Source: an uncultured Spirochaetota bacterium (lineage in GTDB: Bacteria; Spirochaetota; Brevinematia; Brevinematales; JAOACQ01). Taken from it: a stretch of DNA of 64,000 nucleotides. This document shows positions 20,444 through 60,458 of this stretch, piece by piece. Made by a program: the position numbers and the translations under genes. The number at the start of each line of letters is the position of its first letter. Position 1 is the first letter of the stretch. The stretch lies in assembly GCA_963768055.1 (NCBI GenBank), contig CAVYGN010000001.1:256001-320000 (forward strand). Reading direction: 5' to 3'. The notes under the pieces are model-generated. The model searched no databases, was not told the origin of the DNA, and saw only the letters and a program-made list of their open reading frames with translations.

Positions 20444-20461
20444 AGATAATGAGGAGGAAAT

Positions 20462-25813: not shown

Positions 25814-25873
25814 ATTGAAACCTGATAAAGGTAAAGCAAATTGTCAAAATCTTAACATAAGGAGAAACATACC

Positions 25874-27487: not shown

Positions 27488-27502
27488 AAGAGGCTGAATG
27501 CT

Positions 27503-29728: not shown

Positions 29729-29752
29729 TAAATCGGCAAAAAGGAGAAAGGT

Positions 29753-30802
29753 GTGATAAAGGTCCTGGTGGTTGAAGATTCGGTTGTTTCCCGGGAATTT
29801 CTGACGTATATTCTCAATTCCGATACCGCGATCCGGGTTGTCGGTACGGCAAATAATGGCCTGGAAGCCCTAAAAACCCTCATGCAATACAAACCGGACA
29901 TCATTACGATGGACATCAATATGCCCGTAATGGACGGGATTGAGGCCACCAGAAGGATTATGGAAACATTTCCGACGCCTATTGTTATCGTAAGCGGAAG
30001 TTCATATGGAAAAGAGGTCGCATCCTCATTTCGCGCATTAGAAGCGGGCGCCTTAACAGTTGTCCGCCGTCCACCCGGCATTAATCATGATGGGTTTGAA
30101 ACGGCATCCAGAGAACTGATAACAACGGTAAAATTGATGTCCGAGATAAAGGTCGTCAGGCGCATCCCCAGGACCGCAAAAGCCCAATCAGCATCTCTTC
30201 CGAAAGCAGAAAAACATTTAATGGAAACAGGCGGGATCCAGGCCGTTGTCATCGGCGCGTCCACCGGCGGGCCGCCTGCGCTGCAAAAGATCCTCTCGGA
30301 TTTGCCGAAAGGTTTTGCAGTTCCGGTGTTTATCGTTCAGCATATTGCGCAAGGATTTTCAGAAGGCTTTGCAAGCTGGCTTTCCAACACGTCCGGATTC
30401 CCGGTAAGCATCGCGTCCCAGGGCGAAATCGCAGCACCGGAGCACGGTTACATCGCCCCGGATGGTTTCCACATCGGCGTGGGAAACGGCCTGCATATTG
30501 AACTCAGCGGCGGCGATCCGGAGAATGGCATGCGGCCTTCCGCCGACTATCTCTTCTGCTCTGCCTCACAGGGATTTGGCCGGAATGCTGTCGGTGTTCT
30601 CCTGACCGGTATGGGCAGAGACGGGGCTTCGGGATTGAAGACAATGAAAGAAAAGGGCGCCATCACTATAGCACAGGATGAGTCTAGTTCCATTGTGTAC
30701 GGTATGCCGGGCGAAGCGGTCAAACTCGGTGCGGTAACATACATTCTTCCGCTGGAAGACATTGCCACCATATTGACCGATCTGACAAAAAAAGTAAAAT
30801 GA
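29753..30802 (+). CDS. cheB: CheB methylesterase (WspF-like)
   Basis: REC domain plus GASTGG, VQH, LTGMGRDG, GMP. Confidence 0.95.
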   Translation: MIKVLVVEDSVVSREFLTYILNSDTAIRVVGTANNGLEALKTLMQYKPDIITMDINMPVMDGIEATRRIMETFPTPIVIVSGSSYGKEVASSFRALEAGALTVVRRPPGINHDGFETASRELITTVKLMSEIKVVRRIPRTAKAQSASLPKAEKHLMETGGIQAVVIGASTGGPPALQKILSDLPKGFAVPVFIVQHIAQGFSEGFASWLSNTSGFPVSIASQGEIAAPEHGYIAPDGFHIGVGNGLHIELSGGDPENGMRPSADYLFCSASQGFGRNAVGVLLTGMGRDGASGLKTMKEKGAITIAQDESSSIVYGMPGEAVKLGAVTYILPLEDIATILTDLTKKVK

Positions 30803-42213: not shown

Positions 42214-44034
42214 ATGTTAAAGAATAAATTCCGAAATATAGCCATTATTGCACATGTGGACCATGGTAAAACCACGCTGGTCGACGCAATGCTCCGGCAG
42301 AGCGGTGTTTTCAACGGCCATCAGGAACTTCAAGAACGTGTAATGGATTCCATGGACCTGGAAAAAGAACGGGGCATCACTATCGCTGCAAAGAATACAG
42401 CCGTTTATTACAATGGGATCAAGATTAATATTATAGATACTCCCGGGCATGCCGATTTCGGCGGTGAAGTTGAAAGAAGCTTGAATATGGTTGAAGGGGT
42501 GCTTTTGCTGGTTGACGCCAGCGAAGGCCCTCTTCCCCAGACCAGGTTTGTACTCAGGAAAGCCCTGGCGAAAAAGCTTCTTGTAATTCTGGTAATAAAT
42601 AAGATCGACAGGAAAGATGCCCGGATAGAAGAGGTTGTAAGCGAAGTTTATGACCTTTTTATCGACCTGGGCGCAGATCACGATCAAATAGAGTTTCCGA
42701 TCCTTTATACTGTAGCGACTGATGGAGTTGCGTATAAAAATATTGGCGACGATTCAAAAGATCTAAAACCACTGTTTGAAACTATTATCGGATACATACC
42801 GGCACCGGAAAGCGGCATCCGGGAACCCCAATTCCTTATAACCAATCTGGATTATGATTTTTATGTCGGGCAGGTCGCCCTGGGAAGGATGTTCAACGGA
42901 AAACTGGAACTGGCAAAAACTTACGCCCTCTCCAGCGGCGATAAATTAACAAAGAACATAAGGTTCTCCAACCTTTTTACCTACCACGGATTGACAAAAA
43001 AACAGGTGAATGAAGTTGAAGCCGGTGATATTGTCGCCGTATCCGGCGTGGAAAATGTCAGCATCGGCGATACAATTACATCGGAAGATAATCCGATGCC
43101 GCTTCCCGGAATCCGTGTCGATGAGCCGACGGTATCCATGATCTTCTATGTCAATTCGAGCCCTATCGCCGGAAGGGAAGGCAAGTACCTTACTACCCGG
43201 AATATTAAAGCGAGACTTGAAATTGAGTCATTACGGAATGTTTCCATCCGTGTTGAAATAACCGACCGTGCCGATGCTTTCAAGGTATCCGGCAGGGGAG
43301 AACTGCAATTGGGGATCCTTATCGAAACAATGCGCCGGGAGGGATATGAACTGATGGTCTCCAAACCTACTATAATTACAAAAACAATTAATGGACAGAT
43401 ACAGGAACCGTTTGAAAGGGTCTTTTTCGATATCCCGGAAGAGTACATAGGGGTGGTGTCGGAAAAAATGGCCCAGAAGAAAGGAAAAATGGAAAACATG
43501 AAGCACAGCGGCTCCGGCAGAGTGATCATAGAATGCGTCTGCCCGACCCGCGGGCTCATCGGCCTTCGGAGCCAGTTTTTAACCGATACCCGCGGCCTGG
43601 GCATAATAAACTCGATATTTGAAGGTTACAGGGATTGGGCCGGAACGATCCGGCACAGGATTAACGGTGTACTGGTCGCCGACAGGGCCGGCAAATCAAA
43701 TTCTTATGCACACCTGGCCATGGAAGACCGCGGAGAGCTTTTCCTGAATGTCGGAACAGAAGTTTACGAGGGCATGATCGTCGGAGAGAATAACCGGGAT
43801 CATGATCTGGATGTCAATATTACAAAAGAAAAAAAACTCACCAATATGCGAAGTTCAACGTCGGATCAGACAGTCGTTCTGAAAACCCCCAGGCTGCTGT
43901 CTCTTGACGAGGCGATCGAGTTCATCGCCGAGGATGAACTGGTCGAAGTTACGCCGGGCAGTTTCCGGATGCGTAAAATGGAAATGGATCAGAACAAAAG
44001 GGCCATTCTCAATAAAACGCATAATCTGAAATAG
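42214..44034 (+). CDS. typA: Translational GTPase TypA/BipA
   Basis: RNIAIIAHVDHGKTTLVD, DTPGHADFGGEVER, NKID, GRGELQL, KKLTNMRS, DELVEVTP. Confidence 0.97.
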   Translation: MLKNKFRNIAIIAHVDHGKTTLVDAMLRQSGVFNGHQELQERVMDSMDLEKERGITIAAKNTAVYYNGIKINIIDTPGHADFGGEVERSLNMVEGVLLLVDASEGPLPQTRFVLRKALAKKLLVILVINKIDRKDARIEEVVSEVYDLFIDLGADHDQIEFPILYTVATDGVAYKNIGDDSKDLKPLFETIIGYIPAPESGIREPQFLITNLDYDFYVGQVALGRMFNGKLELAKTYALSSGDKLTKNIRFSNLFTYHGLTKKQVNEVEAGDIVAVSGVENVSIGDTITSEDNPMPLPGIRVDEPTVSMIFYVNSSPIAGREGKYLTTRNIKARLEIESLRNVSIRVEITDRADAFKVSGRGELQLGILIETMRREGYELMVSKPTIITKTINGQIQEPFERVFFDIPEEYIGVVSEKMAQKKGKMENMKHSGSGRVIIECVCPTRGLIGLRSQFLTDTRGLGIINSIFEGYRDWAGTIRHRINGVLVADRAGKSNSYAHLAMEDRGELFLNVGTEVYEGMIVGENNRDHDLDVNITKEKKLTNMRSSTSDQTVVLKTPRLLSLDEAIEFIAEDELVEVTPGSFRMRKMEMDQNKRAILNKTHNLK

Positions 44035-44367
44035 TTAACCCTGCCAGTTTCATAGCTGTTTAAAACGCAATATTGATAATTATCATTGAAAAATCAATAA
44101 TAAAATTTAAGTTTGACTATTCGTTATATTATAGTTATATATAGTTGTAATTATTAATTTTCTTTTTGTATCAAGGGTACACTCTAATTGTAAAAATGCC
44201 TTCATGTATGAAAGACGACACCGCATAGCAGAATATGTAATCGTAAAAATCAAAGCTAAAATAACCTCTGTTTTTAAATACAAAAAAAGTTTAAGTGCTT
44301 TATAATAAGTGAGAGTTGGAGTAATGACCGGAGGGAGATGGATGAATCCCTAAAAAAAGGATTTAAA

Positions 44368-45585
44368 ATGAACATTTTGGTTTTTAATTGCGGGAGTTCA
44401 TCTGTATCTTACAAAGTTTTTAAGGTTACAGATTTAGATAAATTTGATGTTATCATCGCCGGTAAAGCTCATAGAGTAGGGGTAACAGGCAGCGAACCTT
44501 CATTTATTGAGCATGAGTATAAAGAAATAATTCATAAAGATGTTTTACCAATAACCAGTTACGGGCAGGCCGCAAAGCTGATATTAAAATTCATTAAAGA
44601 AAATAATGTAGTAATTGATTGTATAGGCAATAGATTTGTTCACGGCGGGACTTATTTCAATAAATCAGTTTTCGTTAATGAGGAGAACTTGAAAAAACTT
44701 AAATTGTGTCTCCCGCTGGCGCCTCTTCATAATCCGATAGCCTTAAGGGTTATTTTTGAATCAAGGAAAGTTTTTACTAATATAAGTCAATATGTGGTTT
44801 TTGATTCTGCATTTCATTCAACTATTCCTGATTACGCCTATACTTACGCTTTGCCGAAACGTATAGTGGAAAAATACAATTATCGGAAATATGGTTTTCA
44901 CGGGCTTTCATATTCATACGTTATTAAAACTGTTTCTGATTTTTTAGAAATACCGTCTGAAAAACTGAAAATCGTAGCATGTCACCTCGGAACAGGCGGC
45001 TCAAGCGTTGCGGCTATTAAAAATGGTTATTCTGTTGACACTTCTATGGGTTTTTCTCCTTTATCAGGTCTTGTAATGAGTACAAGAAGCGGGGATATTG
45101 ACCCTATGATTATGATATATATGATGGTATTTTATGGATATAGGAATGACGATCTGTTGAATTTTCTCAATAAAAAAAGCGGTCTGCTTGGCGTTTCCGG
45201 ATTTTCAAGCGATATAAGAGATATTATAAGCAGGATTTCCGTAGAAAAACAGGCGGGACTGGCTTTCAAAATGTATATACAACGCTTAAAAAAATATATT
45301 GGAAGTTATATTATTGCTGCATTAGGAGGGATTGATGTTTTAATTTTTACGGATGATATAGGCGTTAAGAATCCGCTTGTCAGGGAAAAAGTATGTGAAG
45401 ACATGGAATGGTGCGGGATTGTACTGGACAAAGAAAAAAATAAAAAATACGGAATGAAAAAGCCGGAGCTTTTGAATTCAATGGACTCAAAAGCCCGTAT
45501 TATTGCTGTTCCGACAGATGAGGAAGTTGTGATAGCCTGGGAAGGATTAAAATTGTTAAAGGAAGAAAAAAATGCTGCTCTTTGA
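44368..45585 (+). CDS. ackA: Acetate kinase family protein, Entamoeba-like loop signatures
   Basis: NCGSSS, RFVHGG, APLHN, FDSAFH, YGFHG, TRSGDIDP, TDEE; atypical CHLGTGGSS and FTDDIG; start after AAGGA RBS. Confidence 0.88.
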   Translation: MNILVFNCGSSSVSYKVFKVTDLDKFDVIIAGKAHRVGVTGSEPSFIEHEYKEIIHKDVLPITSYGQAAKLILKFIKENNVVIDCIGNRFVHGGTYFNKSVFVNEENLKKLKLCLPLAPLHNPIALRVIFESRKVFTNISQYVVFDSAFHSTIPDYAYTYALPKRIVEKYNYRKYGFHGLSYSYVIKTVSDFLEIPSEKLKIVACHLGTGGSSVAAIKNGYSVDTSMGFSPLSGLVMSTRSGDIDPMIMIYMMVFYGYRNDDLLNFLNKKSGLLGVSGFSSDIRDIISRISVEKQAGLAFKMYIQRLKKYIGSYIIAALGGIDVLIFTDDIGVKNPLVREKVCEDMEWCGIVLDKEKNKKYGMKKPELLNSMDSKARIIAVPTDEEVVIAWEGLKLLKEEKNAAL

Positions 45586-46618
45586 ACCTGAAGCTCCTTA
45601 TTTGAATTGGTTTTTGATAAATAAAGGAAAAATTGAAGAGGGCAAATTCATTTTTGATAGAAAATGCATGGACGCAGTGAGTGAGAAACTTGGCGGAATT
45701 GAAGATGTGAAAAAAATAGGGTATATTTTATATCATGGAGGTGAAGAAATTAAATCACCGGTAAGTCGTTTAACGGATAATAATATTATTGATTTTGAGA
45801 AGTGTGTTAAATACAACCCCGAACTTAATGATATAACCTTCAAGACTGCGAAATACTGGATGAAAAGAATTCCCGGTGCTGAGCATTTTTTGTTTTGCGA
45901 CACTGCATTCTTTTTAAAACTTCCGCAAGAGTCCAGTTCTTATGCCATTCCATATGAGCTTAGCAGGATAGGTGTAAAAAGATATGGAGGATATGGCTTA
46001 CTCCACCGGTGGGTTTACAAAAAAACCGAACATTTGAATAAAAATGGTATTCATAGATTGATAAGTGTTTATTTAGGAAATAATACTAACTTAGCCGCCA
46101 TAAGTAATAATAGGCCACTGGATACAAGCATGGGTTTTACCCGAATAGAGGGGATAATGTCATCGGGAGGGTGCGGTGATATTGATCCTACGATTATATT
46201 TAATCTTAATTCCGCAGGTTTGGAATTTAAAGAAATTAACAAGCTGCTCAGCCGGGAAAGCGGGTTTTCAGCTTTTCCAGGCAAAAATAACGATTTTTTT
46301 AATGTTATAAATAGAATTAATAAGAGGACTTCAGCGGATGTAAAAGAAGTTTTCTGCTATAGTATAGTAAAATACATCGGGGCTTTTATTGCCGAGCTCG
46401 GGGGTGTTGATTCAATAGTTTTTTCAAGTGAAAATCTGCGGGCTGCCGGCAGTTTTATTATGGAAATAATAAACAAACTTCAATTTTTAGGGGTTAAATG
46501 TAAATTAAAAGAAGAAGGGGATAAGGATTTTTTAAAAATATCAGAAACACGCTCGAAAATTAAAGTATATTGTTTTAATTACAAAAAGTGGAATATTCTT
46601 GATCAAAAATATATTTAA
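45572..46618 (+). CDS. Acetate kinase-like paralog, predicted catalytically inactive
   Basis: HGG, DTAF, YAIP, DTSMGFT..EG, GDIDP, KYIG..AELGGVD retained; NxGSSS, both catalytic Arg, FHG His and TNEE lost. Confidence 0.8.
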   Translation: MLLFEPEAPYLNWFLINKGKIEEGKFIFDRKCMDAVSEKLGGIEDVKKIGYILYHGGEEIKSPVSRLTDNNIIDFEKCVKYNPELNDITFKTAKYWMKRIPGAEHFLFCDTAFFLKLPQESSSYAIPYELSRIGVKRYGGYGLLHRWVYKKTEHLNKNGIHRLISVYLGNNTNLAAISNNRPLDTSMGFTRIEGIMSSGGCGDIDPTIIFNLNSAGLEFKEINKLLSRESGFSAFPGKNNDFFNVINRINKRTSADVKEVFCYSIVKYIGAFIAELGGVDSIVFSSENLRAAGSFIMEIINKLQFLGVKCKLKEEGDKDFLKISETRSKIKVYCFNYKKWNILDQKYI

Positions 46619-46629
46619 GGAGTGAAGGA

Positions 46630-47421
46630 ATGATTAAAGAAAAAGCATTTTTAGAAGATGTGGGAATGAGAGACCTTCCATTTCCAATGAAGGTAATCTC
46701 GAAATTTAACGCGGATGGACAGCCTACTATCGCGAATATTTCCATTAATGCGCGCATTATGCGGGATTTTGAACCGGAATGGATAGATAAGTTTATAAGG
46801 ATTCTGCATTCTCATAGGGAAAAAATAGGAACCAGCACACTAACCACGAATATTTTAGATTATCTTAAAGAATTGAATGCGTCAATGGTTGTTATTGATT
46901 TTAGTTATCCATTTTTTATTGAAAAAACAACCCCTGTATCAAAAGAAAAATGCCTTGTCAGATACATGTGCTCTTACAGCGTAAAAGCTTATCTCACTAT
47001 GGATAAACCTGATATACTTTTTAAAATATCGGTTCCGGCCCTTACTACATATCCACTTTCAAATGAAGAACTGAAAGGGGGTTTATTCGCACAATTAAGC
47101 ATTGTAAATATTGAGATTGAGCCTAAAAAACAGATCTTTCCGGAGGATATTGTAGATATTGTCGATAGGCATGCAATAGCCCCGGTTTATTCTTTTCTGA
47201 CAAAAGAAGACCAGAATTTCATCATTAACAAATTACATACCGAGAAAAAAACAAGTGTTATTCTGACCGATGAAATAAAGGATGAATTTGCACATAATAG
47301 TGAAGTTGAATGGTATAAAGTCAGCTGTACGAATTATGGAATGATGCATTCATACCTCACTTTAATCAGTACTGAAAAAAGTATGTGGATTCCATTCAGC
47401 GGTATCGAAGAAGAGATTTAA
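46630..47421 (+). CDS. FolE2 (GTP cyclohydrolase IB)-like T-fold protein, active-site motifs lost
   Basis: VG...L.FP, Q.TIA, YPFFIEK.TPVS, ED, VYS.L scaffold; HMSR, CPCS, AHxQR, KRxDE, FVED and ESIH are all substituted. Confidence 0.75.
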   Translation: MIKEKAFLEDVGMRDLPFPMKVISKFNADGQPTIANISINARIMRDFEPEWIDKFIRILHSHREKIGTSTLTTNILDYLKELNASMVVIDFSYPFFIEKTTPVSKEKCLVRYMCSYSVKAYLTMDKPDILFKISVPALTTYPLSNEELKGGLFAQLSIVNIEIEPKKQIFPEDIVDIVDRHAIAPVYSFLTKEDQNFIINKLHTEKKTSVILTDEIKDEFAHNSEVEWYKVSCTNYGMMHSYLTLISTEKSMWIPFSGIEEEI

Positions 47422-47443
47422 TTTTTAAATTCGCGGACAATAA

Positions 47444-47740
47444 TTAGGCTGTGGGATTAGACATTTCCAATACAAAAGCGAACATATAGTCGAGCTTTTC
47501 CTGGGGAACATCCTTGTAATGGATCTCTATTTTTTCACCGTCAACCCGTGATACGGTGGCCGATAAATTTTCATTGCCCACTTTTATATTGATCAAATCC
47601 CCGATGGCAAGACAGCCTTTAACCAGCATCTCGATGCCGGTCGAGGTTATATTTGTGATTAAACAGGGGCATCTGATGCCGTTCCATTCATAAAAAGAAC
47701 TTATTTCATGAATTTTTTTATCGAAATTTCTTTTTTCCAT
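47444..47740 (-). CDS. Stand-alone PilZ-like domain protein
   Basis: MEKRNFDK (RxxxK), NITSTG, beta-rich; start after GAGGG RBS. Confidence 0.6.
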   Translation of the reverse strand: MEKRNFDKKIHEISSFYEWNGIRCPCLITNITSTGIEMLVKGCLAIGDLINIKVGNENLSATVSRVDGEKIEIHYKDVPQEKLDYMFAFVLEMSNPTA

Positions 47741-47792
47741 TAATTCCCTCCAAATTTGATGTGAATAATACTGACCTGTTTTGAGCGGCAAG

Positions 47793-48161
47793 TCAAGATT
47801 TCCTGCCCTTCCAGTAACTATCTTCTACGCGCAAGTGCTCTATAAGCGCCTTGAGGGGCCAATGGATATTCTCGTTTGTCGGAGTGCAGAATATCGGACG
47901 CTTTACTTTTGCAACAGAAACAGCCTGCAGGGCTTTTTGAATATCTTCGTCCGAGAAAGCGAGGAACATCATAATGGGGGTCCCGTTTTCCTCGAAATTC
48001 GAACATTCGGCCAGTTCAAGCACCTCCTGGAGGGTCTTTTCCTCCATTCCGGAAGCACTCAGCAGGACGATGTCCCTGTTCAGGCAGTCCTCGACAGCCT
48101 TGCGAAGGCTCATGGCGTCAGCTTCGCTGTATCCGTAAAGAAGGATGCCGGTTTTATCCAT
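47793..48161 (-). CDS. DUF3783-like protein
   Basis: ILLYGY, MMFLAFS...I, PIFCTPTNENIHWPLK.LIEHL..E; GGAGG RBS. Confidence 0.7.
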   Translation of the reverse strand: MDKTGILLYGYSEADAMSLRKAVEDCLNRDIVLLSASGMEEKTLQEVLELAECSNFEENGTPIMMFLAFSDEDIQKALQAVSVAKVKRPIFCTPTNENIHWPLKALIEHLRVEDSYWKGRKS

Positions 48162-48440: not shown

Positions 48441-49400
48441 ATGATTAACAACTTTAAACTTTCAGTCATCGTTCCCGTTTACAATGAAGAAAAAAATATT
48501 CCCCCATTGCTTGAAAGACTGAATAAAGTCATATCCGAAATCGGATGTGAATATGAAATAATATTCTGCATGGACCCCTGCAGGGATAAAACCGAAGAAT
48601 TAATACTGAATTACAGGAAAAAAGACGCCAATATTAAATTGATAAAAATGTCGCGCCGTTTCGGCCAGCCTGCCTGCACGCTGGCGGGGATCCATTACTG
48701 CACGGGCGTTATCTGCGTTGTGATTGACGCCGATCTCCAGGACCCGCCGGAATTGATTAAAGAAATGATTGCAAAATGGAAGGAAGGCTACCATGTTGTC
48801 TATGCCCAGCGGAAGAGCAGGAAGGGTGAAACCATTATAAAAAAACTCGTGGCCTTTCTAGGCTATAAAATCATCAACAGGATATCCGATGTGAGTATTC
48901 CGAGAAATACCGGAGATTTTCGGCTTATAAGCAGGGAAGTAATAGATAATTTAAAGGTATTAAAAGAAAACGACGCCTTTTTAAGAGGGCTGGTCGGTTA
49001 TATAGGGTTCAACCAGATAGGTATTTTATATGAAAGGGATTCAAGGCTGAACGGTAAAGGTAAATATAACAGGTTTTTCGGTTCTCTTAAAATCGGTTTG
49101 AACGGCGTTCTAAGTTTTTCCAAGTATCCGCTGGATTTGATATCGATTTCAGGTTTAATAGTCGCTTTATTCAGTTTTTTATTGGGAATTGCATATATCA
49201 TATTCAGCCTGCTGCATATTAAGATTCCCTGGGGAAATCCCACTCTTGTTATTTTAATTTCCTTTTACAGCGGAATCCAGCTGTTAAGCCTTGGAATCAT
49301 CGGCCAATACCTCGCGAGAATGTTCGACGAGGTCAAAAGGAGACCGATTTTTATTGTCCAGGAAGCGCATGGGTTTGAAATTATCTGGGAAAAAGAGTAG
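48441..49400 (+). CDS. GtrB-like polyprenyl-phosphate glycosyltransferase (GT2)
   Basis: SVIVPVYNEE, SRRFG, DADLQDPPE, GDFRLISR, two C-terminal TMs, KRRP. Confidence 0.9.
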   Translation: MINNFKLSVIVPVYNEEKNIPPLLERLNKVISEIGCEYEIIFCMDPCRDKTEELILNYRKKDANIKLIKMSRRFGQPACTLAGIHYCTGVICVVIDADLQDPPELIKEMIAKWKEGYHVVYAQRKSRKGETIIKKLVAFLGYKIINRISDVSIPRNTGDFRLISREVIDNLKVLKENDAFLRGLVGYIGFNQIGILYERDSRLNGKGKYNRFFGSLKIGLNGVLSFSKYPLDLISISGLIVALFSFLLGIAYIIFSLLHIKIPWGNPTLVILISFYSGIQLLSLGIIGQYLARMFDEVKRRPIFIVQEAHGFEIIWEKE

Positions 49401-49412
49401 TTTGTATAAATT

Positions 49413-49877
49413 ATGTGGAATAGCATTATTACACTTTTTCAAAATATAATATCCGATAAAATAGAAATTTATAAAAAAATTAAATTCCTGTTCATAGGCG
49501 GGACCACCGCCCTGGTGAATTTTTCTCTTATCTATCTGACCAACGGAATTTTAAAACTTAATCATAATTTATCGATTTCAATTTCTTTTTTCTCTGCGAT
49601 GATTTATCATTTCATGATGAACAAAATGTTTGTTTTCCAGGAAAAAAAATTATCGAGGCTCAAGTACCAGATCATTCAATACCTGATTTTATCATTTATA
49701 AATTATTTGATCAATCTGGGGGTCGTAAACTTATTACTCCTGTTCAAGATCAATATTTACATCGGGGTTGCGGCCGCGACAATAATAACAATGCTGTTGA
49801 CATATTTTATCATGAATAGATTGATTTTTAACAAAAAAGCCGCCGGCTTTATAAATTTATCCAGGAAAACGGAGTAA
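49413..49877 (+). CDS. GtrA-family flippase-like protein
   Basis: KFLFIGG...VN, F.MNK.FVF, four TMs. Confidence 0.85.
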   Translation: MWNSIITLFQNIISDKIEIYKKIKFLFIGGTTALVNFSLIYLTNGILKLNHNLSISISFFSAMIYHFMMNKMFVFQEKKLSRLKYQIIQYLILSFINYLINLGVVNLLLLFKINIYIGVAAATIITMLLTYFIMNRLIFNKKAAGFINLSRKTE

Positions 49878-49881
49878 TAAA

Positions 49882-50835
49882 TTGAAGTATTTTGTTACCG
49901 GCGGCGCCGGATTTATCGGGAGCAATATAACCGACAGGCTCCTTGACACTAATAATTCAGTAACCGTTTATGATAATTTTTCCACCGGATTTGAAGAGTT
50001 TTTAAACAGTGCGAAAAGATCTCCCGGCCTTAAAATAGTCGGGGGAGACTTGTTAGACCCGGAAACGCTTGCAGCCGCAATGCGGGACTGCGACTTCGTA
50101 ATACATTTTGCGGCAAATGCCGATGTAAGGTTCGGGATGGAACACCCGCAAAAAGATTTAAATCAGAATATCATCGCGACTTATAATGTTCTTGAAGCAA
50201 TGCGGAAAAATAATATTAAAAAAATCGCTTTTTCATCGACAGGCTCGATTTATGGAGAATCAAAAATTATTCCCACCCCTGAGGATGCGCCCTTTCCGGT
50301 TCAGACCTCCCTTTACGGAGCCTCAAAATTGGCCGGCGAAGGCTTGATCCAGGCTTATTGCGAGGGTTTCGGGTTTCAAGGGTGGATTTTCAGGTTTGTA
50401 TCAATCCTGGGGGAACGGTACACGCATGGGCATATTTTTGATTTTTATAAAATGCTCCTTGAAAATCCCGATAAACTCAGGGTTTTAGGGAACGGACATC
50501 AGAAGAAGTCTTATTTATACATCCAGGACTGCATCGACGCGATTTTTTTCGCCCTGGAAAAGTCGGACGATGAAGTAAATATTTTCAATCTCGGTACAAA
50601 CGAATACTGCGAAGTAAACGATTCGATCGGCTGGATTTCCGGCAATCTTGGCCTGAAGCCGGCACTGGATTATACCGGCGGAGAGCGCGGCTGGATAGGG
50701 GATAATCCTTTTATATTTTTAGACTGCTCGAAAATAAATAAACTTGGCTGGAAGCCCGGATTATCTATTAAAAGCGCGGTTATAAAGACTCTTGAATATT
50801 TAAAGGAAAACAAATGGATTATGGAAAGGAGATAA
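49882..50835 (+). CDS. NAD-dependent NDP-sugar epimerase/dehydratase
   Basis: TGGAGFIGS, HFAA, SST, YGASK; TTG start. Confidence 0.9.
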   Translation: MKYFVTGGAGFIGSNITDRLLDTNNSVTVYDNFSTGFEEFLNSAKRSPGLKIVGGDLLDPETLAAAMRDCDFVIHFAANADVRFGMEHPQKDLNQNIIATYNVLEAMRKNNIKKIAFSSTGSIYGESKIIPTPEDAPFPVQTSLYGASKLAGEGLIQAYCEGFGFQGWIFRFVSILGERYTHGHIFDFYKMLLENPDKLRVLGNGHQKKSYLYIQDCIDAIFFALEKSDDEVNIFNLGTNEYCEVNDSIGWISGNLGLKPALDYTGGERGWIGDNPFIFLDCSKINKLGWKPGLSIKSAVIKTLEYLKENKWIMERR

Positions 50836-50839
50836 ATAA

Positions 50840-51673
50840 TTGAAATCTGTAATTGTTTTCGGCGGAAGCCTGGGAATCGGCAAAAAGATAGCTTTTCATT
50901 TTTTAGAAAATAAATATAATGCTACAGTGTTTGCAAGGGCAAAAAGCAACCTGGAATTATTCCGCAGAGAAGCTGAAGATAAAGGGATGCATGCTAACAT
51001 TCAACAGGGAGATGTCGGAAATATCGATGATGTGAAAAATGCTTTTAAAGAACATAAAAAGAATTATGGCTCATTCCCTTCTTATGTGATAAATACCGCG
51101 GGGATCCAGGGGGCGCTGGGGCCGGCCTGGTCGCTGTCGCAGGCGGATTTTGAAAATGTAATTAAAGTAAATCTAACCGGAAGTTTTAATGTTTCAAAAA
51201 CGGCGATCGAGAATTTAATCGGGGAAAAGAAATCCGGGTCGATCATACTTTTTTCAGGCGGAGGATCATGCTACGCGCGTCCGAATTTTTCTTCATACGG
51301 GGTTTCAAAAACCGGGGTGATCAGACTTGTTGAAACAATAGCGGAAGAGCTGAAACAAAACGGCCTTAAAGGTATAATAATTAATGCAGTCTCGCCCGGC
51401 GCTGTAAGAACCAGGATGACGGAAGAAGTATTAAACTCGAAAGAAAGAGCCGGGGATAAAGCCTTCGGAGAAGCAAAAAAAACTATGGAAAACGGCGGGA
51501 CCCGTCTGAAAGACGTGATCGAACTGGTCGATTTTTTATGCAATAATGATTTAAACAAGGGTTTAAGCGGCAGATTGATACATTTCAGGGACGATTATAA
51601 AAAATTCGCAGAAATTCAAAAAGATAAAATCCATGATGATGCCGGGAAGCTCCGGAGAGTAAAATTGATATAA
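50840..51673 (+). CDS. SDR family oxidoreductase
   Basis: GGSLGIG, NTAG, YGVSK, NAVSPG. Confidence 0.88.
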   Translation: MKSVIVFGGSLGIGKKIAFHFLENKYNATVFARAKSNLELFRREAEDKGMHANIQQGDVGNIDDVKNAFKEHKKNYGSFPSYVINTAGIQGALGPAWSLSQADFENVIKVNLTGSFNVSKTAIENLIGEKKSGSIILFSGGGSCYARPNFSSYGVSKTGVIRLVETIAEELKQNGLKGIIINAVSPGAVRTRMTEEVLNSKERAGDKAFGEAKKTMENGGTRLKDVIELVDFLCNNDLNKGLSGRLIHFRDDYKKFAEIQKDKIHDDAGKLRRVKLI

Positions 51674-51683
51674 AGAGGTACCG

Positions 51684-52658
51684 ATGAATGTCGCTATAAT
51701 CGGCTGCGGACTGATCGGGGAAAAGAGGGCGAGATCGCTCTGCGGCCATAAATTGGTGATCGTATCCGATAAAGACGGGAAAAGAGCCGATATTGTCAGC
51801 CGGATAAATAATCAGAACGCTATTGTCGCCAGGCATTGGGAAGAAGCGGCCGCTCATCCGGAGGTTGATATTGTCATTGTTTCAACAACGAACGATTCTT
51901 TAACGAGGATCGGATCATACGCCCTGGGCCATGATAAGCATGTTTTGATAGAAAAACCCGGGGCAAGGAATTCCGCAGAAATAGAACCCTTTTATAGGCA
52001 AAGCCTCAGTGTAAAAAAGAGGGTAAAAGTAGGTTTCAATTTACGGTATCATCCGGCGCTTTCAAAGGCTAAAAACATAATCGATTCGGGGGGGATCGGC
52101 GGATTGATGTTTATTCGAGGGCGGTACGGCCATGGCGGCAGGGCCGGGTATGATAAAGAATGGAGGGCAAACCCGGAAATTTCCGGGGGTGGAGAACTGA
52201 TCGACCAGGGCATTCACCTGATCGATTTATCCCGCTGGTTTATGGGGGATTTTGATATTATCGAAGGTTTCGCGTCTACATTTTTCTGGGATATGAAAGC
52301 GGACGATAACGGTTTTATTTCTTTAAGGAATGGGTCGGGCAGGGCTTCTTGGCTGCAGGTAAGCTGTACGGAATGGAAAAATATGTTTTGTCTTGAAATT
52401 TATGGGAAATATGGAAAACTCCAGATCGACGGACTTGGAGGAAGCTACGGGATTGAAACGCTCAAATTTTATAAAATGCTTCCGGAAATGGGGCCGCCTG
52501 AAACGACTATATGGGAATATCCGCAGGAAGACAGGTCCTGGGCGCTGGAGTTAAATGATTTTGTCGAAGCGATAGAAAAAAAAAGGGCTGTAAACGGCGA
52601 TTTAAACGATGCGTACCAGGCTCTGAAAATTGTCGATAAAATCTATGGGAGAATTTAA
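51684..52658 (+). CDS. Gfo/Idh/MocA oxidoreductase
   Basis: IIGCGLIG, HVLIEKP, GFNLRY, GGGELIDQGIH. Confidence 0.9.
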   Translation: MNVAIIGCGLIGEKRARSLCGHKLVIVSDKDGKRADIVSRINNQNAIVARHWEEAAAHPEVDIVIVSTTNDSLTRIGSYALGHDKHVLIEKPGARNSAEIEPFYRQSLSVKKRVKVGFNLRYHPALSKAKNIIDSGGIGGLMFIRGRYGHGGRAGYDKEWRANPEISGGGELIDQGIHLIDLSRWFMGDFDIIEGFASTFFWDMKADDNGFISLRNGSGRASWLQVSCTEWKNMFCLEIYGKYGKLQIDGLGGSYGIETLKFYKMLPEMGPPETTIWEYPQEDRSWALELNDFVEAIEKKRAVNGDLNDAYQALKIVDKIYGRI

Positions 52659-53642
52659 ATGATAATTACCAGAAGTCCGCTGAGAATAACATTAGGAGGC
52701 GGAGGAACAGATCTCGCTTCTTATTATAATGAATTCGGCGGGTTTGTGATCGCTGCCGCGATCGATAAGTATATTTATATAACCCTGCATAAAACTTTTC
52801 AGCCCGGATATATAATAAAATACTCCCTGATGGAAAAAGTCATGGAAATTTCGGATATACAACATCCGATAATCAGGGAATCGCTGAAATTATTAGACTT
52901 GAAAGATAATTATATAGAACTTACAAGTATGGCGGATATTCCTTCCGGTACAGGCCTTGGCTCATCGAGCAGTTTCACGAGCGCTCTATTGAAAGCCCTT
53001 CATGTCTATAAAAGGGATTTTATTCATCCGAAAGAACTTGCCGAAGAGGCCTGCGATATTGAAATTAATAAACTCGGAGAACCGATAGGAAAGCAGGACC
53101 AGTACATTTCAACGTACGGAGGTTTAACCTGCTTCGACTTTAACCGGGATGGAAGTGTAGGGTCATATCCTTTAAGGATCGATAAAGAGACATTATATGA
53201 CCTGGAGGATAATCTGCTGCTGTTTTTTACAGGTTTTTCCAGAAGCGCTTCTTCGATATTAAAGGAACAAAACGATAAAAGTATTGAAAAAAATATCGAT
53301 ATGATAGAAAACCTTCATTTTGTAAAAGACCTGGGATTAAAAAGCAAGGAGGCTTTAGAAAAGGGCGATTTAACTAACTTCGGAGAATTGATGAATATTC
53401 ATTGGGAACATAAGAAAAAAAGATCGGGTTCTATTTCGAACCCGAAGATAAATGAATGGTACGACCTTGCCTTAAAGAACGGGGCTGCAGGAGGCAAACT
53501 TATCGGCGCCGGCGGAGGAGGTTTTCTGATGTTTTATGCCAAAGATAAGATCAAGTTAAGACATGCATTAATGAACGAAGGCCTTGAAGAAATCCGCTTC
53601 AGATTCGATTACGAGGGAACAAAGGTTGTTACGGAATCATGA
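52659..53642 (+). CDS. hddA: D-glycero-alpha-D-manno-heptose 7-phosphate kinase (GHMP)
   Basis: PLRITLGGGGTD, PSGTGLGSSS, GKQDQY, GKLIGAGGGGF. Confidence 0.85.
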   Translation: MIITRSPLRITLGGGGTDLASYYNEFGGFVIAAAIDKYIYITLHKTFQPGYIIKYSLMEKVMEISDIQHPIIRESLKLLDLKDNYIELTSMADIPSGTGLGSSSSFTSALLKALHVYKRDFIHPKELAEEACDIEINKLGEPIGKQDQYISTYGGLTCFDFNRDGSVGSYPLRIDKETLYDLEDNLLLFFTGFSRSASSILKEQNDKSIEKNIDMIENLHFVKDLGLKSKEALEKGDLTNFGELMNIHWEHKKKRSGSISNPKINEWYDLALKNGAAGGKLIGAGGGGFLMFYAKDKIKLRHALMNEGLEEIRFRFDYEGTKVVTES

Positions 53643-54361
53643 TAAATGATATCGCCGTTTTAGCAGGCGGCCTTGCGACCCGCCTTTATCCTGTAACACA
53701 AAAGATGCCTAAATCGATGATAGATATTAACGGGAAGCCTTTTGTGCATCATCAGCTGGAATTATTAAAGAAAAACGGTCTGGAGCATGTAGTATTGTGC
53801 ATCGGATATATGGGCGGGATGATACAGGATTACGTTAAGGACGGGAGGCGATTCGGTTTAAAGGTCACATATTCTTTTGACGGGGATAACCTCCTTGGAA
53901 CAGGCGGGGCGATAAAAAAAGCCCTTCCGGAACTGCACGAAGTCTTTTTTGTGATGTACGGAGATTCTTATTTACCGGCAGGCTTTCTACCCGTATCGGA
54001 TTATTTTTTGAGGCATAATAAAAAAGCGCTGATGACGATTATAAAAAACGATAATAAATGGGACAAAAGCAACGTTGTTTTCAATAACGGGGCAATTACC
54101 GGGTATAATAAGAAGGTTACGGTACCTGAAATGAAATATATTGATTACGGACTGGGCATTTTCAGGAGAGCATGTTTTGACGGGATTAAAGAAAATGAAA
54201 TTGCGGACCTTGCAGATGTTTATAAGGGCCTGGCGTCTGAAAACGAACTTATAGGATACGAGGTTGAAGAAAGGTTTTACGAAATAGGATCGTTTAAGGG
54301 CATAGAAGAAACAAAAAAGCATTTAAGCAGCTTAAACACCGAGCTTGAAATTAAAGCATGA
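53639..54361 (+). CDS. Heptose-1-phosphate nucleotidyltransferase (HddC-like)
   Basis: LAGGLATRL.P, PKSM, LLGTGGA, YGDSY, EIG. Confidence 0.8.
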   Translation: MINDIAVLAGGLATRLYPVTQKMPKSMIDINGKPFVHHQLELLKKNGLEHVVLCIGYMGGMIQDYVKDGRRFGLKVTYSFDGDNLLGTGGAIKKALPELHEVFFVMYGDSYLPAGFLPVSDYFLRHNKKALMTIIKNDNKWDKSNVVFNNGAITGYNKKVTVPEMKYIDYGLGIFRRACFDGIKENEIADLADVYKGLASENELIGYEVEERFYEIGSFKGIEETKKHLSSLNTELEIKA

Positions 54362-54383
54362 ATTTAAAATTACGGAGACCGGA

Positions 54384-54989
54384 ATGGATATTAAAGCATA
54401 CATTGAAACATTCTTGATGAATGTAATTAAAATCGCTGAAAAAATCGATAAAAGCTCCATAGAAAAGGCGGTTAATGTTCTTCTTGAAATAAAAAAGAAA
54501 CAGGGAAGGCTTTTTATACTCGGGGTGGGGGGGAGCGCCGGAAACGCCGGCCATGCCGTTAATGATTTCAGAAAACTGGCCGGCCTGGAATCTTATGCTC
54601 CGACCGATAATGTTTCCGAACTGACCGCGCGTATAAACGACGACGGCTGGGATACTGTTTTTGTAAATTGGCTGAAGGGAAGCCGGCTCAATTCTAACGA
54701 CGGAATTCTTGTTATTTCAGTGGGCGGCGGGAGCGAGGAAAAAAATATAAGCGTAAATATAGTTAAAGCCTTGAAATATGCCAAAGAGGCCGGTTCAAAG
54801 GTGATAGGACTTGTAGGCAGGGACGGCGGTTTTACGGCTAAGGCGGCGGATGCGTCTGTTTTAATCCCGGTTGCGGATGAGTGCATGGTTACGCCTTTGA
54901 CGGAGTCGTATCATGCCGTCGTATGGCACATGCTGGTTTCCCACCCCGCATTAAAGGACAATGACGCGAAATGGGAGTCGACAAAGTAA
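54384..54989 (+). CDS. gmhA: Phosphoheptose isomerase (SIS domain, GmhA-like)
   Basis: GVGGSAGNAGH, TARINDDG, SVGG.S..NI..AL, G.DGG, TES.H; start after GGAG. Confidence 0.75.
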   Translation: MDIKAYIETFLMNVIKIAEKIDKSSIEKAVNVLLEIKKKQGRLFILGVGGSAGNAGHAVNDFRKLAGLESYAPTDNVSELTARINDDGWDTVFVNWLKGSRLNSNDGILVISVGGGSEEKNISVNIVKALKYAKEAGSKVIGLVGRDGGFTAKAADASVLIPVADECMVTPLTESYHAVVWHMLVSHPALKDNDAKWESTK

Positions 54990-55568
54990 ATGATTAAAGC
55001 TATTTTTCTTGACAGGGACGGGGTAATAAACAAGCCGGTATTGAACCTTTCTAACGGCGAATTTGAGCCGCCGCACAGGGTAAAGGATTTAAATTTGTAT
55101 CCATGGGCCCTGGAAAGTTTAAAATTAGCCCTTGAAAACGGTTTTTCTCTTTTTTTGGTCTCCAACCAGCCGGATTATGCGAAAGGAAAATGCAGCCTTG
55201 AAGATTTGACGGAAGTCCATAACAGGCTGGATGAAATACTTAAGCAAAACGGAATAAACTTTAAGGAATATTACTATTGCTACCACCATCCTGCAGGAAT
55301 AACGGCAGGATATAAGGGGCAATGCGGCTGCAGGAAACCCGAGCCCTATTTTTTGAAAAAGGCCGAAAAGTCATATGGAATCGATATGAGTTTATCCTGG
55401 ATGATAGGCGACAGGGAAACGGATATTATCTGCGGAAAAAATGCGGGCGTGCGCACGATCCTCGTCAGTAGCGAAGAACAGACTCTTTCTTCCGGCAGCG
55501 TCAGCGATTTTACCGCGGATAATCTCCTGGATGCGGTAAGGCTGATTATCGATAAAAAGAAATTATAG
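54990..55568 (+). CDS. gmhB: Heptose bisphosphate phosphatase (HAD IIIA)
   Basis: FLDRDGVIN, VSNQ, CYHHP...CGCRKP, MIGDRETD. Confidence 0.88.
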   Translation: MIKAIFLDRDGVINKPVLNLSNGEFEPPHRVKDLNLYPWALESLKLALENGFSLFLVSNQPDYAKGKCSLEDLTEVHNRLDEILKQNGINFKEYYYCYHHPAGITAGYKGQCGCRKPEPYFLKKAEKSYGIDMSLSWMIGDRETDIICGKNAGVRTILVSSEEQTLSSGSVSDFTADNLLDAVRLIIDKKKL

Positions 55569-55578
55569 GAATGAGATT

Positions 55579-56286
55579 ATGTTAAATTTAAAGATTAAAA
55601 TCTTCTCGGACGGAGCGAAGATCGACGATATGCTGAAAGCCTATAAAGAAGGGTCGGTAAGCGGCTTTACAACAAACCCGACGCTTATGAAGCAGGCCGG
55701 GGTCTTTGATTACGAGGCTTTCGCCAGGGAAGCGTTATCTGAGATAAAAGACCTGCCGATTTCCTTCGAGGTTTTCTCCGACGACTTCGAATCCATGGAA
55801 ATGGAGGCGAAAAAGATCGCCGGCTGGGGAAAAAATGTTTACGTCAAGATACCTATAACCAATACGAAGGGCGAATCCTCGATACAGTTGATTAAAAAGT
55901 TGAATGACGAGGGGTTATCTTTAAATATTACGGCAGTTATGCCTATAGAACAGGTTGAAGCCGTTGCAAAAGCGGTAAATCCCGGGGTTAAGAATATTGT
56001 TTCAATATTTGCCGGTAGAATAGCCGATACGGGCCGCGATCCGGTGCTTATCATGAAGAAGGCGGTTGAAATATGCAGAAAAAACCCTAACCTGGAAGTG
56101 TTATGGGCCAGCCCCAGGGAGCTTTTAAACATATTCCAGGCGGAAGAAGCAGGCTGCCATATTATCACGGTATTGCCGGATGTTTTGAAAAAGCTCGCGC
56201 TTGTCGGCAAGGATCTTAATGAATATTCGCTCGATACAGTGAAAATGTTTTATAACGACGCGAAGAGCGCAGGGTATAAGATTTAA
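55579..56286 (+). CDS. tal: Transaldolase (short type)
   Basis: GFTTNPTL, ISFEV, VYVKIP, NITA, SIFAGR, LWAS.RE. Confidence 0.88.
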   Translation: MLNLKIKIFSDGAKIDDMLKAYKEGSVSGFTTNPTLMKQAGVFDYEAFAREALSEIKDLPISFEVFSDDFESMEMEAKKIAGWGKNVYVKIPITNTKGESSIQLIKKLNDEGLSLNITAVMPIEQVEAVAKAVNPGVKNIVSIFAGRIADTGRDPVLIMKKAVEICRKNPNLEVLWASPRELLNIFQAEEAGCHIITVLPDVLKKLALVGKDLNEYSLDTVKMFYNDAKSAGYKI

Positions 56287-56336
56287 ACTCAATCATCATA
56301 CTAATCTTTGTACGAAGACAATTTTTTATCTCGCGT

Positions 56337-56371
56337 ATTCGAAAACTTGAACTGCATCATCTCAAAACGGC
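56337..56371 (+). repeat. Copy of the dispersed repeat also at 22551-22585
   Basis: ATTCGAAAACTTGAACTGCATCATCTCAAAACGGC identical at both sites; flanks weakly similar. Confidence 0.9.
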
Positions 56372-56426
56372 GGCAGCGTTTGATTCAATACTTTTAAACT
56401 TTTATAAGCTATTTAGTAGAAATTAT

Positions 56427-57269
56427 CTATTTTAATAATTCCGAAAGAATTTCTGAATTTATTAATAATTCATTATTCATTATTTCTTCAAAAGAACCGT
56501 TTTTTTTAATTATATTAAGAATTGTATACATTGATTTTAATGATGAAGAAATTAAAATCGAAGGAAGGCTTACCCTTTCAACCCCGTATTCAATACAGTC
56601 GTTTATACTGAATTCAGTAATATTATACGGCATCCCTGCCGCAATACTGATACGTCCCTTGATTTCCTTTTTAAGAAGCCTGATTTCATCTTTCGTTCTT
56701 ATATTAGTAACAAAACAAATATCTGAACCTGATTCCAGATATTTATTTCCCCTGTCAATGGCTATTTTTAGCGCCTCATTCCTGTTTTCAGTGGATTTTA
56801 AAGCGTCAGTCCTCGCATTTAGAATGAAATCAGGAATATTTAATTCTTTTTTAATTTCAATTATTTTATTGATTTTATCGGTCATTGTATTTATAGATAC
56901 AATTTTTTCAATTTTATCAGTGTTCCATAAATTTTGATCCTCAATATTAATTCCGGAAATACCGGTGTTAATAAATTTAATTAAGTTATTTTTGAAAAAC
57001 TCGTTACTTCCATATCCGTCTTCACCGTCCGCCATTACAGGTATATTAACGGCATTTACAATTTCCCGGGTGATTGAAATGTTTTCATCAATTGATATAA
57101 GATCCTCATGCTTATATTTTTTTGAAACCGAGAAACTATAACCGGAACATTGAACCGCTTTAAACCCCGCAAGTTCTATCAGCCTGGCAGAAATACCATT
57201 ATAGGCATCCGGTACTATCAGTGTTTCCTTATTTGATAACAGATTTTTGAGCATTTTGTATTTATTCAT
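56427..57269 (-). CDS. Isocitrate lyase/PEP mutase family protein
   Basis: PDAY..ISARL, GFKA, PVMADGEDGYG, INIEDQ, NARTD; AT-rich. Confidence 0.85.
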   Translation of the reverse strand: MNKYKMLKNLLSNKETLIVPDAYNGISARLIELAGFKAVQCSGYSFSVSKKYKHEDLISIDENISITREIVNAVNIPVMADGEDGYGSNEFFKNNLIKFINTGISGINIEDQNLWNTDKIEKIVSINTMTDKINKIIEIKKELNIPDFILNARTDALKSTENRNEALKIAIDRGNKYLESGSDICFVTNIRTKDEIRLLKKEIKGRISIAAGMPYNITEFSINDCIEYGVERVSLPSILISSSLKSMYTILNIIKKNGSFEEIMNNELLINSEILSELLK

Positions 57270-57581: not shown

Positions 57582-58409
57582 ATGAATTCCATAGATGCGG
57601 CTAAATTGCATTATAAAGTCCTGAACACGATGATATTCGACTCGATAAACGGCGGCGAAAACCATATCGAGGTCAGGAATGTCATGGGCCACAGGTATAT
57701 CGGGGACGGACTTCGAGGAAACGGCATTAAAATAGACATTTACGGAACGGCCGGAAACGACCTGGCCGCTTTCATGAACGGCCCGGTCATCAATGTGTAC
57801 GGAAACGCCCAGGACGGCATCGGAAATACTATGAATTCAGGCAGGATATTCGTTCATGGGGACGCCGGGGACGTCCTTTTTTACGGCATGAGGGGCGGCG
57901 AGGTATATATCAAGGGCAATGTGGGCTACCGCGTAGGGATACACATGAAGGAGTACATGAATTTCATACCCAAGGTCGTGATCGGCGGCTGCGCCGGCGA
58001 CTTTTTCGGGGAATATATGGCCGGGGGGAATCTTGTCATTCTCGGCCTCAATGCGGGGAAGGCCCCGGTCCTCGGAAATTATGCGGCTACCGGAATGCAT
58101 GGCGGCCGGATTTATATCCGGGGGAAGGTCGATCCCTCCAGGACAGGAAAGGAGACAAAGTCGTTCGATATCGATGAGGAAGATTTGAAAATATTAAAGC
58201 CTCTTATCGGGGAATTTTGCTCCGCTTTCGGGTATGACAGCGGGAAGATCCTGAAAGACAGGTTTACAAAACTCATTCCCGTGAGCAAGAGGCCGTACGG
58301 AAAGCACTATGTGCCAAGCTGGCACACGATCACCGACAGGAAATCGATAGTGCCCGGCTCTTTTGAAGATAACGGTTATCCCGCCGTCAGGAATGTAAGG
58401 GACAGATAA
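57582..58409 (+). CDS. Glutamate synthase GXGXG beta-helix subunit (GltB3-like)
   Basis: Repeated G-rich motifs GNAQDG.GNTM..G, GDFFGEYMAGG, GMHGG.IYIRG. Confidence 0.88.
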   Translation: MNSIDAAKLHYKVLNTMIFDSINGGENHIEVRNVMGHRYIGDGLRGNGIKIDIYGTAGNDLAAFMNGPVINVYGNAQDGIGNTMNSGRIFVHGDAGDVLFYGMRGGEVYIKGNVGYRVGIHMKEYMNFIPKVVIGGCAGDFFGEYMAGGNLVILGLNAGKAPVLGNYAATGMHGGRIYIRGKVDPSRTGKETKSFDIDEEDLKILKPLIGEFCSAFGYDSGKILKDRFTKLIPVSKRPYGKHYVPSWHTITDRKSIVPGSFEDNGYPAVRNVRDR

Positions 58410-58425
58410 ATTTCAGGAGGAAACG

Positions 58426-59904: not shown

Positions 59905-59912
59905 GAGGAACA

Positions 59913-60443: not shown

Positions 60444-60458
60444 CGGAGGAGTGCGGCA

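Follow-up and report, generated by a model that had tools for sequence, protein, structure and literature searches.

Predicted Entamoeba-type acetate kinase gene in an uncultured Brevinematales bacterium, followed by genes for a degenerate paralogue and a FolE2-like protein

A 64,000-nt stretch of DNA from an uncultured Spirochaetota bacterium (Brevinematales, JAOACQ01; GenBank assembly GCA_963768055.1, contig CAVYGN010000001.1, positions 256,001 to 320,000 of the forward strand), referred to below as the window, contained a gene (ack) whose product, P0001, belongs to the acetate kinase (ACK) family and carries a lengthened PHOSPHATE2 loop like that of the Entamoeba enzyme. It was followed on the same strand by genes encoding a second member of the ACK family without catalytic residues (P0002) and a FolE2-like T-fold protein (P0003). 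The features of this locus were as follows.

44035..44367, + strand: AT-rich intergenic leader of 333 nt, from typA/bipA to ack
44368..45585, + strand: P0001, ACK placed by sequence in the extended-PHOSPHATE2-loop (Entamoeba-type) branch; open reading frame (ORF) of 405 aa
44386..44403, + strand: PHOSPHATE1 core N7-C-G-S10-S11-S12, intact; Lys14 of ordinary ACKs is Ser here and Lys stands at 16, as in Entamoeba
44980..45006, + strand: PHOSPHATE2 loop CHLGTGGSS (residues 205-213), one residue longer than in ATP-type enzymes, with Thr/Gly replacing Asn
45076..45096, + strand: LOOP3 MSTRSGD, with Ser238 for Gly239 of the Methanosarcina thermophila enzyme (MtACK) and catalytic Arg240 retained
45346..45363, + strand: ADENOSINE loop FTDDIG (residues 327-332), with Asp329-Asp330 replacing Gly/Ala-Gly, Ile331 as in ATP-type enzymes and Lys334 at the position of the ATP-type Asn
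45572..46618, + strand: P0002, ACK paralogue of 348 aa lacking catalytic residues; its first 14 nt overlap the end of ack
46630..47421, + strand: P0003, FolE2-like T-fold protein, 263 aa, without the Cys and His motifs that the solved FolE2 chains show

The ATG at 44368 was preferred as the start of ack over an alternative in-frame ATG upstream at 44338, which would give 415 aa (10 residues more), because 12 of the 15 closest homologues of P0001 are 405 aa long, the ack ORFs of two related loci (L001 and L002, described below) begin at the equivalent ATG, and an AGGA lies 6 nt 5' of it. P0001 matched the Pfam family Acetate_kinase (PF00871) over residues 3-390 (E = 1.2e-112; 377 bits, cut-off 22) and TIGR00016 (ackA) with 389 bits, above the cut-off of 293. 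It falls outside the curated ATP-type equivalogs of NCBIfam, with scores of 270-307 bits for AckA, TdcD and related kinases, under cut-offs of 486-693.

In a 67-row alignment of extended-loop sequences, the Entamoeba ACK included, residues N7, G9, S10-12, R89, H121, D146, F177, H178, R240 and E385 were invariant; the Arg, His, Asp and Glu residues of this set correspond to catalytic residues of MtACK. The residues of PHOSPHATE1 were listed after PMC4390882 and those of the acetate pocket (Val93, Leu122, Phe179 and Pro232) after PMC5517563, the pocket equivalents V91, L120, F177 and P231 being kept in P0001. Phe90 was considered as a replacement of pocket Val93 and rejected: when the sequences were registered on Arg91, His123 and His180, Phe90 corresponded to Val92, and Val93 to V91. 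P0001 is predicted to be a catalytically competent acetate kinase.

The distribution of the two altered loops was inspected in homologues of P0001 comprising its best 120 matches in a 90%-identity protein collection and, from 50%-identity clusters, the best 150 representatives. Those with a length of 360-480 aa went into a MAFFT alignment of 244 rows: P0001, 118 of 119 top matches (P0018, of 359 aa, was left out; the window's own protein appears as P0004) and 125 of the 150 representatives. Two types were found, with G-T/S-G-G accompanied by FTD in 133 rows, G-x-G without the inserted residue accompanied by FT[G/A/S] in 111 rows, and a mixture in none. The pairing of GTGG with FTD is thus not a matter of chance, and the two motifs are strictly linked. 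The extended type comprised all 118 full-length top matches and 14 of the 125 representatives, and the named relatives were metagenome-assembled genomes (MAGs) of Brevinematales (85% identity), Elusimicrobia, Omnitrophota, Phycisphaerae, Sedimentisphaerales, Kiritimatiellae, Bacteroidota and BRC1. These relatives make a Brevinematales origin of the window probable.

At 26 signature columns, where the top residue occurs in 80% or more of the branch and in no more than 10% of the other rows, the 133 extended-loop sequences differed from the 111 ordinary ones, and the Entamoeba sequence has the branch residue in 20 of these. The inserted PHOSPHATE2 column was filled in 133/133 branch rows and empty in 111/111 ordinary rows. 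The positions most relevant here are listed with P0001 numbering, Mt denoting MtACK and Eh the E. histolytica enzyme (EhACK).

Positions 38-39: two-residue insertion Gly-Val in the branch; absent from ordinary rows; Eh N34-V35
Position 90: Phe in 122/133 branch rows; Val in ordinary rows; beside pocket residue Val93
Position 209: inserted Thr in the branch; column empty in ordinary rows; Eh T201
Position 210: Gly in the branch; Asn in 76/111 ordinary rows; Eh G202
Position 238: Ser in the branch; Gly in 90/111 ordinary rows; Mt Gly239
Position 329: Asp in 133/133 branch rows; Gly/Ala in 110/111 and Asp in 0/111 ordinary rows; Eh D322
Position 330: Asp in 126/133 branch rows; Gly in 107/111 ordinary rows; Mt Gly331, Eh Q323

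In addition, the PHOSPHATE1 Lys14 found in 105 of the 111 ordinary rows was Thr or Ser in 112 of the 133 branch rows, 118 of which had Lys16. The position of Eh Glu327, occupied by Lys334 in P0001 and by Asn in 82/111 ordinary rows, was His (42), Arg (32) or Lys (20) in the branch (n = 133), and the Glu preceding it in 100/111 ordinary rows was replaced in the branch by Val, Leu or Ile.

Among solved structures, the best sequence match of P0001 was 4h0o (366 bits), followed by the enzymes of Thermotoga (321), Porphyromonas (319) and Methanosarcina (279). The entry 4h0o is the E. histolytica ACK, according to its label in the fold search and the legend of Fig. 1 in PMC5517563. One representative (P0128, 392 aa) scored 834 bits against 4h0o, with the same numbering, and was therefore used as the ACK of the genus Entamoeba; its identity to P0001 is 47%. 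A first-pass annotation of the window had read CHLGTGGSS and FTDDIG in P0001 beside intact catalytic residues, and these were found as described. It had also given the corresponding Entamoeba strings, and these were correct: a HMMER alignment showed ACHLGTGGSS and FTDQMG in chain 4h0o_A, and the segments V.VTG.E..FIEH, QAAKLI..F.KEN and GFHGLSY.YVI fitted both P0001 and 4h0o.

Two trees were built. A FastTree phylogeny (LG+gamma) of 166 rows, consisting of P0001, every third top match and all 125 representatives, gathered the 55 extended-loop tips in one clade with no foreign tip within it (support 0.91). An unrooted IQ-TREE phylogeny (LG+G4, 1000 ultrafast bootstraps and SH-aLRT) of 64 rows comprised 27 extended-loop sequences (P0001, the 14 representatives and 12 hand-picked top matches), 28 ordinary sequences (every fourth of the 111) and 9 paralogues of the P0002 family, and left out 83 ordinary and 106 extended-loop rows. 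All 27 extended-loop rows lay on one side of a branch (99/84) that was present in 99% of bootstrap trees. The Entamoeba ACK was nested in a 25-row clade (100/97), where the representatives P0130, P0140 and P0225 grouped with it, and joined the subclade of P0001 in a 19-row group with weaker support (81/82). Ordinary AckA was placed outside the extended-loop side in the trees; the first-pass annotation had proposed kinship with the Entamoeba enzyme, to be abandoned if P0001 clustered with ordinary AckA, and the kinship held, in the trees as in the identity and the best solved relative. The extended loop, the nested position of the Entamoeba ACK and the outside position of ordinary AckA identify P0001, at the level of sequence, as an Entamoeba-type ACK of the same branch as the E. 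histolytica enzyme. The tree picture agrees with the published view that Archamoebae gained their ACK by lateral transfer (PMC8136499).

EhACK (4H0O; Pi/PPi-dependent, EC 2.7.2.12; Pi, orthophosphate; PPi, pyrophosphate) shares with P0001 the string ACHLGTGGSS with its extra Gly, Asp322, a Ser that replaces Gly239, Lys16 together with Thr/Ser14, two residues inserted behind the first beta-hairpin and the Phe beside Val93, but differs in having Gln323-Met324 and Glu327 where P0001 has Asp-Ile and Lys; set beside it, the bacterial gene also has two conserved operon partners. MtACK (1G99/1TUY) and the bacterial AckA, TdcD and PduW enzymes have the same fold and the same catalytic and acetate-pocket residues, but they are 37-43% identical to P0001, use ATP/ADP, lack the extra loop residue and carry Lys14, Asn211, Gly239, Gly/Ala330, Gly331, Glu334 and Asn335. 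Dang & Ingram-Smith 2017 (PMC5517563) described four Anaerolineaceae ACKs (Ornatilinea, Longilinea, Flexilinea and Leptolinea) and digester-metagenome sequences with an extended PHOSPHATE2 loop as possible PPi-ACKs. These match P0001 in the second loop Gly, the ADENOSINE Asp and the Asp at Gln323, and P0001 carries the GTGG and FTDD by which that group is recognised; the comparison is by description only, and the group belongs to a different phylum, whereas the nearest named relatives of P0001 are Brevinematales MAGs. Since its loop and Asp-Asp pair match the 2017 description, the kind of enzyme that P0001 represents is not new.

P0001 probably uses Pi/PPi as its phosphoryl pair and is a candidate PPi-forming enzyme, an assignment held with modest confidence. 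It is suggested by the replacement of all four residues that contact the ATP phosphates (Asn211, Gly239 and Gly331 in Mt numbering, and Lys14) together with the longer loop. The enzyme would, like EhACK, convert acetyl phosphate and Pi to acetate and PPi, passing the phosphoryl group to Pi instead of ADP; the resulting PPi would feed PPi-based anaerobic metabolism, and P0001 would work jointly with the two co-transcribed, co-conserved downstream proteins. In MtACK, where Gly331 contacts the alpha- and beta-phosphates of ATP, the changes Asn211Thr, Gly239Ser and Gly331Gln each lower ATP-dependent activity 44- to 200-fold (PMC4390882), and P0001 has the equivalents of all three in addition to the longer loop and the displaced PHOSPHATE1 lysine. 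EhACK uses only Pi/PPi, strongly favours the direction from acetyl phosphate and Pi to acetate and PPi, and loses its activity when the extra Gly203 is deleted in a Q323G-M324I variant (PMC5517563). In PPi-phosphofructokinase, of unrelated fold and family and alike by analogy only, a comparable swap of a conserved Gly for Asp is held to exclude ATP (PMC5931981).

Several points weigh against a Pi/PPi enzyme, and some of them would equally suit an ordinary ATP/ADP acetate kinase with drifted nucleotide loops, Entamoeba having switched substrate separately after the branch arose. The EhACK residues Gln323-Met324, proposed to occlude the adenosine pocket, correspond to Asp330-Ile331 in P0001, where Ile is the residue of ATP-type enzymes, and Eh Glu327 corresponds to Lys334; at the Gln323 position the ATP-type Gly is nevertheless replaced (Asp330). 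Published mutagenesis found these EhACK residues to be insufficient as determinants (PMC5517563). P0001 retains the adenine-stacking Arg285 as Arg284 and its partner Asp283 as Asp282, and the two also represent the Eh Asp272-Arg274 salt-bridge pair of the pocket; this pair is kept in EhACK as in ATP-type ACKs. The fold search with the AlphaFold model of P0001 cannot separate the two types, as ATP-type ACKs and 4h0o all matched with TM-scores of 0.83-0.87, and the model has pLDDT below 50 at LOOP3 residues 237-242. The counts given above are not phylogenetically independent, since the 133 extended-loop rows are mainly P0001's own best matches. EhACK works alone as a recombinant enzyme, so that the conserved bacterial partners may indicate another physiological role. 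A Pfam search of the 64-kb window for pta, xfp, PPi-phosphofructokinase, pyruvate phosphate dikinase and H+-PPase found none, and literature searches found no assay of a bacterial extended-loop ACK; a match for 'pyrophosphate-dependent acetate kinase' reported that the activity was not detected in Desulfobulbus. According to PMC5517563, substrate determinants in the family are unsettled, reciprocal mutagenesis never switched either enzyme type to the other, which makes sequence a weak predictor of the phosphoryl partner, and the partner of the Asp-Asp enzymes is left undecided between ATP, PPi and neither.

A drifted ATP/ADP enzyme is nevertheless judged unlikely. Gly331 gave way to Asp through nearly all of the branch and stayed Gly in nearly all ordinary rows (position 330 above), Lys14, Asn211 and Gly239 were replaced as well, and the single changes at Asn211, Gly239 and Gly331 were costly to MtACK (PMC4390882), while the extra loop residue was needed for the activity of EhACK (PMC5517563).

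The gene directly downstream, and the FolE2-like gene after it, had not been mentioned in the first-pass annotation. P0002 matched Pfam Acetate_kinase (6.7e-50) and scored 162 bits for TIGR00016, below the cut-off of 293, with 28% identity to P0001. Its AlphaFold model was confident (pLDDT 86.8) and showed the entire ACK fold (query-normalised TM-score of 0.80-0.87), with the three N-terminal strands present and the following sub-domain of about 35 residues missing. In the 120 family members the NxGSSS loop was replaced, as were the residues equivalent to Arg91, His123, His180, Arg241 and Glu384, and only the equivalent of Asp148 was kept, whereas E84, N86, H105, C109, H145 and C201 were new and nearly invariant; the PHOSPHATE2 loop of P0002 is the short form. 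The nine family members in the IQ-TREE phylogeny formed a clade of their own (100/100) outside both ACK groups. The family had 1775 matches at E <= 1e-3, and its members are annotated by NCBI as hypothetical proteins. Judged by these replacements, P0002 is catalytically degenerate and does not qualify as an active acetate kinase.

P0003, a relative of GTP cyclohydrolase IB (FolE2), matched Pfam GCHY-1/FolE2 over its whole length (E = 3.6e-21), and its matches among solved structures (2R5R, 3D2O and 8G6C) scored 56-76 bits. It differs from FolE2 in its score of 62 bits against an NCBIfam equivalog cut-off of 215, in its own invariant residues, and in having YPLS and GLFAQLS where the three solved chains have CPCS and GAHNQRS, which we take to be the metal-ligand motifs of FolE2. 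The P0003 family was the most conserved of the three, with 119 other matches, from several phyla, listed at 60-86% identity, a mean column identity of 69% in a 57-row alignment, and C108 and C114 invariant. An Atlas search with P0003 returned generic FolE2 clusters only. Each non-catalytic family thus has two conserved cysteines that it gained for itself: in the T-fold protein C108 and C114 are invariant, and in the paralogue C109 and C201 are nearly so.

The order ack, paralogue, FolE2-like gene was kept in the window and in all three related loci (L001-L003, the matches of a contig scan made with the single ACK protein), with overlaps or with gaps of at most 16 nt, while the flanking genes differed in every locus. 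In L001 and L002 the ACK was 83-85% identical to P0001, and in L003 (candidate division BRC1) the identities were 59% for the ACK, 33% for the paralogue and 58% for the T-fold protein. L002 (CAWEFA010000143.1) is labelled as an uncultured Bacteroidetes bacterium; its ACK, 83% identical to P0001, groups with Brevinematales MAGs, and the bin label may be wrong. Co-occurrence was also gauged indirectly from equal lengths of the longest contigs across the three top-match lists, a match by length and not by contig identity: at least 32 of the 119 ACK matches had a counterpart in the paralogue list and at least 18 in the T-fold list, and at least 9 (8 distinct lengths, one length being duplicated within the ACK list) were paired in both. 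The main text of PMC5517563 does not mention the downstream paralogue or FolE2-like gene, and a literature search for FolE2 together with acetate kinase returned unrelated papers only, none linking them. Adjoining the cluster are two small convergent genes on the opposite strand.

47444..47791, - strand: 115-aa protein without a Pfam match
47793..48161, - strand: DUF3783 protein

Around the cluster, an Rfam scan of 43900..47900 gave no match below E = 0.5 and none near a gathering score, the 333-nt leader showed no conservation against L001 and L002, and promoter-like and terminator-like sites in the sequence were no commoner than in shuffled sequence.

The conserved link to a T-fold protein bears on the phosphoryl partner as well. 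T-fold proteins typically bind purines or pterins, and P0001 could be an acyl-phosphate phosphotransferase whose partner is neither Pi/PPi nor an adenine nucleotide but of a third kind. This could be polyphosphate, or the FolE2-derived protein could present a guanine nucleotide or a pterin-like compound; a new site would then be formed by the Asp-Asp pair and the basic residue 334. Residue 334 is in keeping with this, as 94/133 branch rows have His, Arg or Lys at the position of Eh Glu327 and most ordinary ones Asn, and so is the hydrophobic residue that takes the place of the preceding Glu; the possibility was itself raised for the Asp-Asp enzymes (PMC5517563). Such a partner is rather doubtful, as the Cys and His motifs known from solved FolE2 have been lost from the FolE2-like protein and the sole characterised member of the branch uses Pi/PPi.

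That the enzyme acts on a carboxylate other than acetate (e.g. formate or propionate), in a pathway set by the three-gene cluster, is very improbable. Phe90 stands for Val beside the pocket residue Val93 throughout most of the branch and the cluster was unlinked to pta in 4/4 loci, as such a pathway might have it, but the four published pocket positions are all kept, and EhACK also has Phe there yet is described as an acetate kinase (PMC5517563).

With Pi/PPi use retained as the preferred reading of P0001, a hetero-oligomer of the cluster proteins may serve as a putative working idea. When a complex of P0001 (1-397), P0002 (1-345) and P0003 (1-258) was predicted and P0003 was scored as the partner, the ipSAE values were 0.01 and 0.00, which speak neither for nor against binding. 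Quite speculatively, the three genes could encode one machine, in which a PPi-forming ACK and its dead paralogue would pair as a heterodimer with one active site and the T-fold protein derived from FolE2 would be a ligand sensor or a third subunit; the cluster would then be the ancestral bacterial context of the orphan Entamoeba ACK and a widespread but unrecognised route of energy conservation at the level of PPi in anaerobes.

Elsewhere in the window, several groups of genes were recognised.

14746..21208: probable mobile-element patch with a TrwB/TraG-type coupling-protein fragment, PLD-like nuclease, DUF3644, Mu-type transposase C-terminal domain and IstB-like ATPase; the GC content falls to 0.26 at 16-18 kb within it
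23389..30802: complete chemotaxis cluster (CheW, CheR-TPR, CheW, CHASE3 MCP, CheA-CheY, CheB), then a hybrid histidine kinase, an HD-GYP-like response regulator and more regulators up to 39 kb
48441..57269: sugar-nucleotide/glycan cluster (GT2, GtrA, epimerase, SDR, GFO/IDH/MocA, GHMP kinase, nucleotidyltransferase, SIS, HAD, then transaldolase)
56427..57269, opposite strand: gene of the phosphoenolpyruvate-mutase family, which hints at phosphonate modification
57582..61751: split glutamate-synthase-like genes (GXGXG domain, Glu_synthase domain with ferredoxin motifs, 4Fe-4S protein) and a pyridine-nucleotide-disulphide oxidoreductase with a rubredoxin-reductase C-terminal domain

The literature still gives E. 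histolytica as the only known source of a PPi-dependent acetate kinase (PMC5931981). What determines the use of PPi or ATP in the family is unsolved (PMC5517563), and debate continues over the role of the Entamoeba enzyme and over where the acetyl phosphate comes from (PMC9983610). Two aspects of the present locus appear to be new, namely that the branch is large and spread across many anaerobic phyla, and that a conserved cluster joins the enzyme to two degenerate partners. The bacterial branch varies at the disputed positions (323, Asp/Gln; 324, Ile/Met; 327, His/Arg/Lys/Glu) and so forms a comparative series, while the conserved association of the enzyme with a dead paralogue and a degenerate FolE2-like protein offers a concrete lead for inexpensive experiments. 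If the three genes do form one machine, it would span Omnitrophota, Phycisphaerae, Kiritimatiellia, Elusimicrobia, BRC1 and Brevinematales, among others. If PPi is indeed the product, metabolic models that read this gene as an ATP-yielding AckA would mis-state the energy yield of many uncultured anaerobes.

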